A stretch of DNA of 64,000 nt from a virus (Duplodnaviria > Caudoviricetes), in IMG/VR virus record IMGVR_UViG_3300042301_004035. One strand, written 5' to 3'. Below the pieces are notes generated by a model, which worked only from the letters and a program-made list of their open reading frames with translations, searched no databases and was not told where the DNA came from. The translations under genes and the position numbers were made by a program. This document shows, piece by piece, positions 61,072-61,256 of this stretch (within the stretch, counting starts at the first letter, position 1; each line of letters opens with the position of its first letter).

Positions 61072-61162
61072 AAGACAGTAGCGTGTCCTACTTAATCGTG
61101 GGCGAACCCAATGATGCAATAAGCACGTGAGACCCATATTCTCTTGGCATCACTGCTGTCTT
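61072..61162 (+). ncRNA. Pseudoknotted structured RNA, copy A
   Basis: 10-bp closing stem, TGATGC/GCATCA inner stem, CGTG/CACG crossing pair; homologous to copy B. Confidence 0.5.
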
Positions 61163-61171
61163 TTATTTTCA

Positions 61172-61256
61172 TGATAGTAGCGCATTTCAATGTTGGTAAT
61201 GATAGAATATAATGCGTACTACAACTTCCCGTTGTGGAACTCTATCACTACTATCA
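61172..61256 (+). ncRNA. Pseudoknotted structured RNA, copy B
   Basis: 9-bp closing stem, TGATAGA/TCTATCA inner stem, CGCATT/AATGCG crossing pair. Confidence 0.5.

Follow-up and report, generated by a model that had tools for sequence, protein, structure and literature searches.

Two structured elements lie behind a phage tRNA gene

The virus record IMGVR_UViG_3300042301_004035 (Duplodnaviria; Caudoviricetes) comprises 64,000 nucleotides (nt), and this whole stretch is the window of our analysis. Between a gene for a protein with a DnaJ-type zinc finger and a whiB gene, it carries a gene for the transfer RNA (tRNA) tRNA-Thr(UGU) and, behind it on the same strand, two short elements, A and B, with which this report is concerned. 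An earlier note on this DNA had described them as two units of 85-91 nt with a common layout, the first placed 2 nt past the tRNA discriminator; both statements can be read directly from the sequence, in which the tRNA gene ends at 61069 according to Rfam and A begins at 61072. The helices (S1 to S3), hairpins (hpA and hpB) and loops of the two elements are given below, together with the scores of covariance model R3.

60998..61069 (+): tRNA-Thr(UGU) gene without an encoded CCA (RF00005, 68.4 bits; ARAGORN sets its end at 61070)
61072..61162 (+): element A, whole RNA of 91 nt, subtype A (R3 model match, 80.4 bits)
61072..61081 (+): A, 5' strand of S1, AAGACAGUAG; partner 61153-61162, 10 base pairs (bp) including one G-U
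61082..61086 (+): A, 5' strand of S2, the first pseudoknot stem, CGUGU; partner 61123-61127 (GCACG)
61099..61110 (+): A, hpA, a small variable hairpin in loop L1, UGGG-CGAA-CCCA; 92.5% paired among A-type copies
61112..61117 (+): A, 5' strand of S3, the second pseudoknot stem, UGAUGC, with an invariant AA 5' of it; partner 61147-61152
61123..61127 (+): A, 3' strand of S2, GCACG; from pairing and covariation counts
61129..61143 (+): A, hpB, a 4-bp hairpin with the 7-nt loop CCCAUAU; 100% paired among A-type copies
61147..61152 (+): A, 3' strand of S3, GCAUCA, with a 0-nt joint to the S1 3' strand; from pairing counts
61153..61162 (+): A, 3' strand of S1, CUGCUGUCUU; from pairing counts
61172..61256 (+): element B, whole RNA of 85 nt, subtype B, 9 nt 3' of A (R3 model match, 70.4 bits)
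61172..61180 (+): B, 5' strand of S1, UGAUAGUAG; partner 61248-61256, CUACUAUCA
61181..61186 (+): B, 5' strand of S2, CGCAUU; partner 61211-61216 (AAUGCG)
61187..61199 (+): B, loop L1, UCAAUGUUGGUAA, with an invariant AA at its end; GUUGGKA conserved
61200..61206 (+): B, 5' strand of S3, UGAUAGA; partner 61241-61247 (UCUAUCA); 100% paired
61219..61237 (+): B, hpB, a 7-bp hairpin with the loop UUCCC; stem covaries in relatives

Both elements follow the helix order S1-S2-(hpA)-S3-S2'-hpB-S3'-S1', with hpA missing from B, and in both there are zero unpaired bases between S1 and S2 and between S3 and S1. The fold is a terminal helix, S1, that closes a three-way junction without unpaired bases and whose inner arms, S2 and S3, are interlocked. 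Because S2 and S3 cross, the elements are helix-closed pseudoknots of the H type, in which loop 1 may hold one variable hairpin (hpA) and loop 3 another (hpB). The motif GTAGCG..ATGAT..ATCACT has two sites in the window, namely A and B, versus no match in 100 shuffles, and folding of the elements compared with their own shuffles gave z = -3.1 for A and z = -2.8 for B.

Covariation defines a family of RNAs in lake phages

About 31 distinct sequences of the family were collected, all of them from freshwater phage or metagenome contigs representing many lakes: 15 belong to subtype A, 12 to subtype B, three to subtype E, and subtype D consists of a single distinct sequence. A covariance model built from both copies and run against metagenome sequences, which the earlier note had proposed, was among the means that yielded these homologs, and they show covariation in the three core helices. 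The first relative (locus L118, an A-type copy directly 3' of tRNA-Thr) was found among contigs with relatives of the upstream gene, and a motif scan added a lone B-type copy behind an open reading frame (ORF) in L307. Since an odd tRNA-like element lies just downstream in the window, in L118 and in L307, it was used as a search anchor; it is present in 10 viral and 47 metagenome contigs, many of which have A and/or B upstream. With a model made from A only (R1), the match to B was weak and misaligned, while model R2 (A and B) brought in more A variants and the diverged subtypes D (L324) and E (L362; two copies in L342). These searches covered the fetched loci, and their E-values are rough owing to a short calibration.

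Beyond this set, the searches were negative. Among the matches listed in IMG/VR scans for junction-word motifs nearly all were chance, the structure filters letting through only L236, L307 and noise of the L298 type; when 80 related loci were screened with a structure descriptor that made no use of sequence, only long terminator-like hairpins were recovered. No family member was detected by R2 in 78 more distant DnaJ-gene loci, or by R3 in 22 viral loci fetched with a D/E-type pattern, in Streptomyces phage EGole, or in 44 pattern matches from prokaryote genomes, whose number equals the chance expectation. The nearest virus record (G001) gave no match, and a BLAST search of cultured phages returned matches to tRNA-Thr and to the odd tRNA only, none to A or B. 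Several of the distant DnaJ-type loci (L134, L142, L155, L173 and L192-L196) contain a number of long perfect hairpins per locus, GTTTGTG(T/C)TGGGG..CCCCA(A/G)CACAAAC, probably a terminator or repeat element peculiar to their clade.

The assigned partners are complementary in 98.3% of the cells of the subtype A alignment (32-58% with slid partners) and in 99.6% of those of subtype B (19-54%); over the A, B and joint A+B alignments, slid partners pair at roughly 20-70%. In the joint alignment (22 sequences; mean column identity 63%), S1 and S3 are 96.3% paired, six pairs are changed on both sides, and the covariation score is 0.355 versus 0.166 after shuffling. Four S1 pairs are changed on both sides in this alignment, two of them separating A from B, and positions 5 and 6 of S3 covary between the subtypes. 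When all 31 sequences are registered on the junction, S1 is paired at 100%, S2 at 99.4% and S3 at 99.5%, and double changes are found at five of the eight S2 positions, at three S3 positions and at ten S1 positions, the last count being partly due to a one-base register shift of subtype E. Within A-type copies, S2 is 98% and S3 100% paired, and two of the ten S1 pairs are changed on both sides in this subtype alone; within B-type copies, S1 is 100% and S2 98.6% paired, and S2 has a single double change, from U-A to C-G. What the earlier note had seen in two copies, paired bases that differ yet stay complementary, therefore extends to homologs from other contigs, in which compensatory changes keep every helix.

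G-U pairs make up 43 of the 600 stem pairs and would turn into A-C mismatches if read on the opposite strand, so that the folded RNA corresponds to the + strand, the same as the genes. Insertions and deletions in the A and B alignments do not come in multiples of three. These data bear on the view that there is no functional RNA here at all, but a DNA-level element (an inverted-repeat relic or a mobile miniature element) or a chance structure. S1 can indeed be read as terminal inverted repeats of 9-10 bp, and one B copy has decayed; however, the crossing helices S2 and S3 covary, the G-U pairs are strand-specific, the roughly 31 distinct sequences are conserved over many lakes, and copies are not dispersed within genomes. 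We already disfavour this view and give it hardly any credence. The decayed copy (L345, 890-953, + strand) retains S1 and part of S2, has lost S3 and hpB, and lies behind an intact A-type copy; B can thus be lost in some lineages. Judged from comparison of their sequences, A and B are members of a real, conserved family of structured sense-strand RNAs.

Conservation is concentrated at the junction. The first four bp of S3, UGAU/AUCA, are identical in 30 of 31 sequences, the exception having U-U at pair 1, and some B-type copies show a G-U at pair 3; the S2 junction pair is invariant. Universal unpaired bases are few (about four positions), namely the AA 5' of S3 and the U after the S2 3' strand, and nearly all copies have a leading A in loop 2, which in one E copy begins with U. 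All copies have a hairpin hpB, which varies in sequence, length and loop between and within subtypes, and loops are conserved inside a subtype over covarying stems, with the consensus C(C/A)CAUAU in subtype A. Other B-type copies carry a short unrelated hairpin at this position, and hpA, absent from subtype B, is replaced or missing in the remaining subtypes. S1 and S3 together amount to 16-17 bp in all four subtypes even though the parts vary (10+6, 9+7, 10+7 and 9+bulge(1)+6), and this fixed sum suggests a coaxial stack of constant length.

In two A-type variants (L344, 8102-8194, and L352, 904-996), a helix of 9 bp is possible between GUGUCUUAC, which comprises the S2 5' strand and the start of L1, and GUGAGACAC, the end of the S2 3' strand plus the 5' half of hpB. 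This alternative fold competes with S2 and hpB and is impossible in the copy of the window.

Known classes of structured RNA do not account for the family

Searches with Rfam 15 returned only tRNAs, both for the whole window at the gathering score and for the 501 nt around A and B up to E=10. At the D and E loci, likewise up to E=10, no family matched besides models of C/D-box small nucleolar RNAs; these weak matches (E 2-8) were rejected because they lie on the strand opposite to the RNA. Given these results and the roughly 31 covarying homologs, the earlier note's failure to match known classes and its proposal of an undescribed class of non-coding RNA hold up, and our data support the view that the family is undescribed so far, without a detectable known relative.

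The same note had considered self-cleavage or an involvement in tRNA processing. If the family were a new class of small self-cleaving ribozymes, A might free or trim the 3' end of tRNA-Thr and the other copies might cut polycistronic RNA. The position of A, 2 nt past a phage tRNA that lacks CCA, is that of theta ribozymes (PMC10879173); the elements are compact, pseudoknotted and phage-borne, as are many small ribozymes; the UGAU/AUCA core and the junction pairs are highly conserved; and permuted forms can evade Rfam models (PMC10085705). Yet the helix order is unlike that of HDV and theta ribozymes, for which a nested double pseudoknot of the order P1-P2-P3-P3'-P1'-P4-P4'-P2', cleaved at the first nucleotide of P1, is required and which we rejected on this account, S1 enclosing the whole RNA here; nor did the HDV-family models match up to E=10 in the 501 nt around A and B or at the D and E loci. 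Hammerheads, whose core blocks CUGAnGA, GAAA and NUH flank stems I-III (PMC10085705), were rejected in both the classic and the non-circularly permuted form since these unpaired blocks are not present: the nearest hammerhead-like string, AAUGAUG(C/U) or AAUGAUAGA, lacks C3 and A9 and is Watson-Crick paired in S3, where it covaries, while GAAA is absent and a GAA-type block is not found in all B copies. Twister, twister-sister, pistol, hatchet and hairpin ribozymes gave no Rfam match up to E=10, a search that did not extend to permuted forms. Moreover, only about four unpaired positions are universal, and these sit at the junction; a cut that frees the tRNA would have to fall at the 5' end of S1, 9-10 bp away. 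B (in L362), D and E have no adjacent tRNA to release, which makes a dedicated role in tRNA 3' processing unlikely and speaks against that part of the earlier proposal. A ribozyme role is therefore disfavoured on the available sequences, and we consider it improbable.

Riboswitches include tandem aptamers and helix-closed pseudoknot aptamers, and the conserved junction core could form a binding pocket through which a tandem ligand aptamer would control the downstream genes or the odd tRNA. However, there is no expression platform: neither a terminator-like site after A or B nor sequestration of a Shine-Dalgarno site by the elements was found, and no Rfam aptamer model matched. The downstream genes vary or are absent, and A lies directly behind a tRNA; we regard a riboswitch as very improbable. 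With respect to type III toxin-antitoxin systems, whose antitoxin RNAs form short, nearly identical tandem repeats beside the gene for an endoribonuclease toxin, A and B are diverged, copies often occur singly, and the neighbouring ORFs had no toxin-family match in Pfam or PHROGs. The idea that the B hpB loop, (C)UUCCC(G), reads a four-base CGGN codon was rejected, as unrelated short hairpins replace this loop in seven of the 12 B-type copies.

The family occurs in a single small-RNA island

The DnaJ-type gene and whiB enclose every copy of the family, in an island with the order DnaJ-type zinc-finger gene, [tRNA-Thr+A / E / D], (ORF144 / ORF68), [B], an ORF of 44-49 amino acids or its 9-codon remnant, the odd tRNA, and whiB. 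The family is found only in this island of a clade of freshwater phages with whiB and genomes of about 170-260 kilobases (kb), at one to three copies per genome: a 216-kb contig rated 100% complete has A and B only, a 169-kb relative has one A, and the L117 genome, which carries a canonical tRNA-Ile(UAU) in the slot of the odd tRNA, has no family copy. A-type copies start 2 nt after the tRNA-Thr discriminator in 15 of 15 loci, though the tRNA sequence diverges, and the A-B spacer of 7-10 nt is typical for tRNA arrays. In the window, ORF144 and ORF47, which follow the elements in relatives, have been lost, and A and B are intact.

In the window the flanks of the island are formed by a 151-residue protein with a DnaJ-type CxxCxGxG zinc finger (60536-60991, + strand), for which IMG/VR contains more than 570 relatives, and by a regulator of the WhiB family (61406-61738, + strand), whose presence suggests an actinobacterial host. 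Pfam and PHROG searches with ten neighbouring ORFs plus ORF144, ORF47 and ORF68 retrieved only OmpA, DnaJ zinc finger, WhiB and M50.

In the main rival explanation, the elements would act in cis between cistrons as a processing site, as a 5' or 3' stabiliser that holds off exonucleases, or as a translational operator for a phage protein, like the pseudoknot of phage T4 gene 32, which is such an operator bound by a phage protein. E, D and B follow directly 3' of the stop codon of an ORF, and in several genomes they precede start codons by 22-31 nt, with an A/U-rich unstructured sequence and a Shine-Dalgarno site in between; no promoter-like or terminator-like site was found inside the array; and a compact, helix-closed pseudoknot could plausibly block exonucleases. 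On the other hand, a general mRNA element should recur elsewhere, so that one to three copies in a single island of a genome of about 200 kb count against a cis role. The window has lost the downstream ORFs and yet retains A and B in fully conserved form; S1 overlaps no ribosome-binding site, the Shine-Dalgarno sites of the downstream ORFs lying outside it; and two diverged paralogs are maintained side by side. We hold a cis role to be possible but rather unlikely.

An odd tRNA-like gene downstream of the elements

The element that served as search anchor lies at 61314-61392 (+ strand) in the window and has a normal acceptor stem and T arm. Its anticodon-like hairpin (loop CUUAUAA; UAU, Ile) nearly abuts the acceptor stem, and a D-loop-like AGUUGGU comes after the hairpin. 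It is missed by ARAGORN, and Rfam gives only a weak match to the tRNA-like domain of transfer-messenger RNA. Counterparts are present in L118 (4124-4203), L307 (2157-2236), L444 (2499-2577) and 47 metagenome loci (L324-L370), and the gene fills the slot that the canonical tRNA-Ile(UAU) holds in the relative L117. The homolog of Streptomyces phage EGole (loop CUGAUAA) adjoins a nucleotidyltransferase gene and is annotated as tRNA-Leu.

Ahead of it, at 61279-61308 (+ strand), stands a 9-codon ORF (MSTNRIGSR*), the stop codon of which precedes the odd tRNA by 5-8 nt. It is the remnant of a lysine-rich ORF of 44-49 amino acids that ends in ..TNRIRTK* in relatives, with counterparts in L322, L335, L338, L344, L362 and L342; in L118 and L344 its ATG and the stop codon upstream of it overlap as ATGA. 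CGA-AUA are invariant codons, and ACUAACC within the small ORF can pair with GGUUAGU within the odd tRNA, over 9 bp in the window and with G-U changes that keep the pairing in relatives. The small ORF looks like a putative leader-peptide or leader-pairing device ahead of an AUA-reading tRNA.

A tentative interpretation: stable RNAs released like tRNAs

The explanation that we favour, with less than even confidence, is that A and B are paralogous stand-alone stable RNAs of about 80-100 nt, possibly derived from tRNA, which would be freed by tRNA-maturation nucleases and act in trans. Few copies per genome in one island, their persistence after the loss of flanking ORFs, and conserved, subtype-specific hpB loops point to RNA genes rather than to general cis elements, and the constant distance from tRNA-Thr, similar to that between tRNAs, suggests that nucleases of tRNA maturation would release the elements. 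On this model, the elements would not regulate any particular gene. They would be transcribed inside a polycistronic tRNA/mRNA transcript and be excised by host nucleases, with RNase P cutting at the base of S1 and trimming of the 3' end, in the way phage tRNA dimers are separated, after which the subtype-specific hpB loops would mediate their action in trans.

The strand order may be read as that of a tRNA in which the 5' strand of the T stem has been relocated into the D loop: S1 would correspond to the acceptor, S2 to the D stem, hpB to the anticodon arm and S3 to the T stem. GUUGGKA in loop L1 of B equals the tRNA D-loop consensus, and hpA of A is similar to a T-arm with a shortened loop. 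The scaffold might then derive from a tRNA or mimic one, for instance as a decoy or adaptor for a tRNA-binding factor; this tRNA-like reading of the strand order is weak. A more far-reaching proposal, which we consider unlikely, is that the family and the odd gene 60-600 nt downstream, an 'arm-swapped' tRNA-Ile-like gene, are non-circular tRNA permutations processed by RNase P into decoys or adaptors, or, alternatively, that the family is a new self-cleaving ribozyme class. As a permutation, the pseudoknot would replace the T hairpin while the L-shaped tRNA-like body would be kept, and such pseudo-tRNAs would serve tRNA-binding factors of the host or the phage.

A number of observations weigh against stable, tRNA-related RNAs acting in trans. 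Six tRNAs are recognised in the window by ARAGORN and RF00005, with neither A nor B among them; no local hairpin was found 5' of the S1 3' strand, and no T loop; and the helical stack measures 16-17 bp, not the 12 bp gauged by RNase P, EF-Tu and the CCA-adding enzyme. When the hpB of A plus its 3' flank is set against the phage tRNA(CAU), 14 of 17 positions over the anticodon arm and variable loop are identical, with a shuffle p = 0.014 that is uncorrected for seven comparisons, so that a tRNA ancestry would be tentative; B had no similarity to the phage tRNAs in the same comparison. The spacing of B, D and E to start codons fits a cis role too, and no informative Pfam or PHROG match among the neighbouring ORFs offers a partner protein or target.

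Phage tRNA islands are increasingly viewed as sites where phages alter decoding, and what is new here is a conserved family of pseudoknotted RNAs without a known relative that stands in register with tRNAs. The family would be novel either as an RNA that derives from tRNA or mimics it, as a ribozyme, or as a processing signal. With about 80-90 nt, the fold is small enough for structure determination, and each of these options is testable with short synthetic transcripts. All members found come from a single clade of uncultured lake phages, and the immediate reach of so narrow a family is limited.

Comparison with known phage RNAs and tRNAs

ToxI-like type III antitoxin RNAs and phage pseudo-ToxI consist of pseudoknot repeats. 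The family shares with them that tandem, phage-borne RNAs are pseudoknotted; it differs in its units of 80-100 nt, its strongly diverged and often single paralogs, and in that no endoribonuclease toxin gene is adjacent. Theta ribozymes are minimal HDV-like ribozymes beside phage tRNAs (PMC10879173), and they resemble subtype A only, since both are short pseudoknotted RNAs a few nt 3' of a phage tRNA without CCA. The family does not have their nested double pseudoknot (P1/P1.1/P2/P3/P4), possesses an enclosing terminal helix, and is not linked to tRNAs in B, D and E.

Small stable RNAs matured by RNase P are present within phage tRNA clusters, namely the species 1 and 2 RNAs of T4 and the M3 RNA of phi80. 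As they have been described, these are likewise non-tRNA molecules without an established function that stand in line with phage tRNAs at tRNA-like spacing; they stem from enterobacterial phages and, to our knowledge, do not have the pseudoknot of the family.

Non-canonical tRNAs and tRNA-like processing signals include the 8/4 and 9/3 tRNAs (PMC5389517), those reviewed in PMC7609411, and the t-elements of plant mitochondria (PMC1920247). Like a tRNA, the family has an acceptor-like S1 that is stacked, with 0 nt in between, on another helix so as to give a constant summed length, a D-arm-like stem whose loop contains GG, an hpB resembling the anticodon arm after a spacer of 1-2 nt that recalls tRNA position 26, and a location in a tRNA array. 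Unlike a tRNA, it carries a pseudoknot in place of the T hairpin and no equivalents of positions 8-9, and U33 is missing from its hpB loops, which differ from one subtype to another. In non-circularly permuted hammerheads, the relocation of a strand makes pseudoknots and lets the RNA escape standard models (PMC10085705). The hammerhead blocks themselves are absent from the family, which, if derived from tRNA, would be a permutation of a similar kind; were this true, non-circular RNA permutation would extend beyond hammerhead ribozymes.
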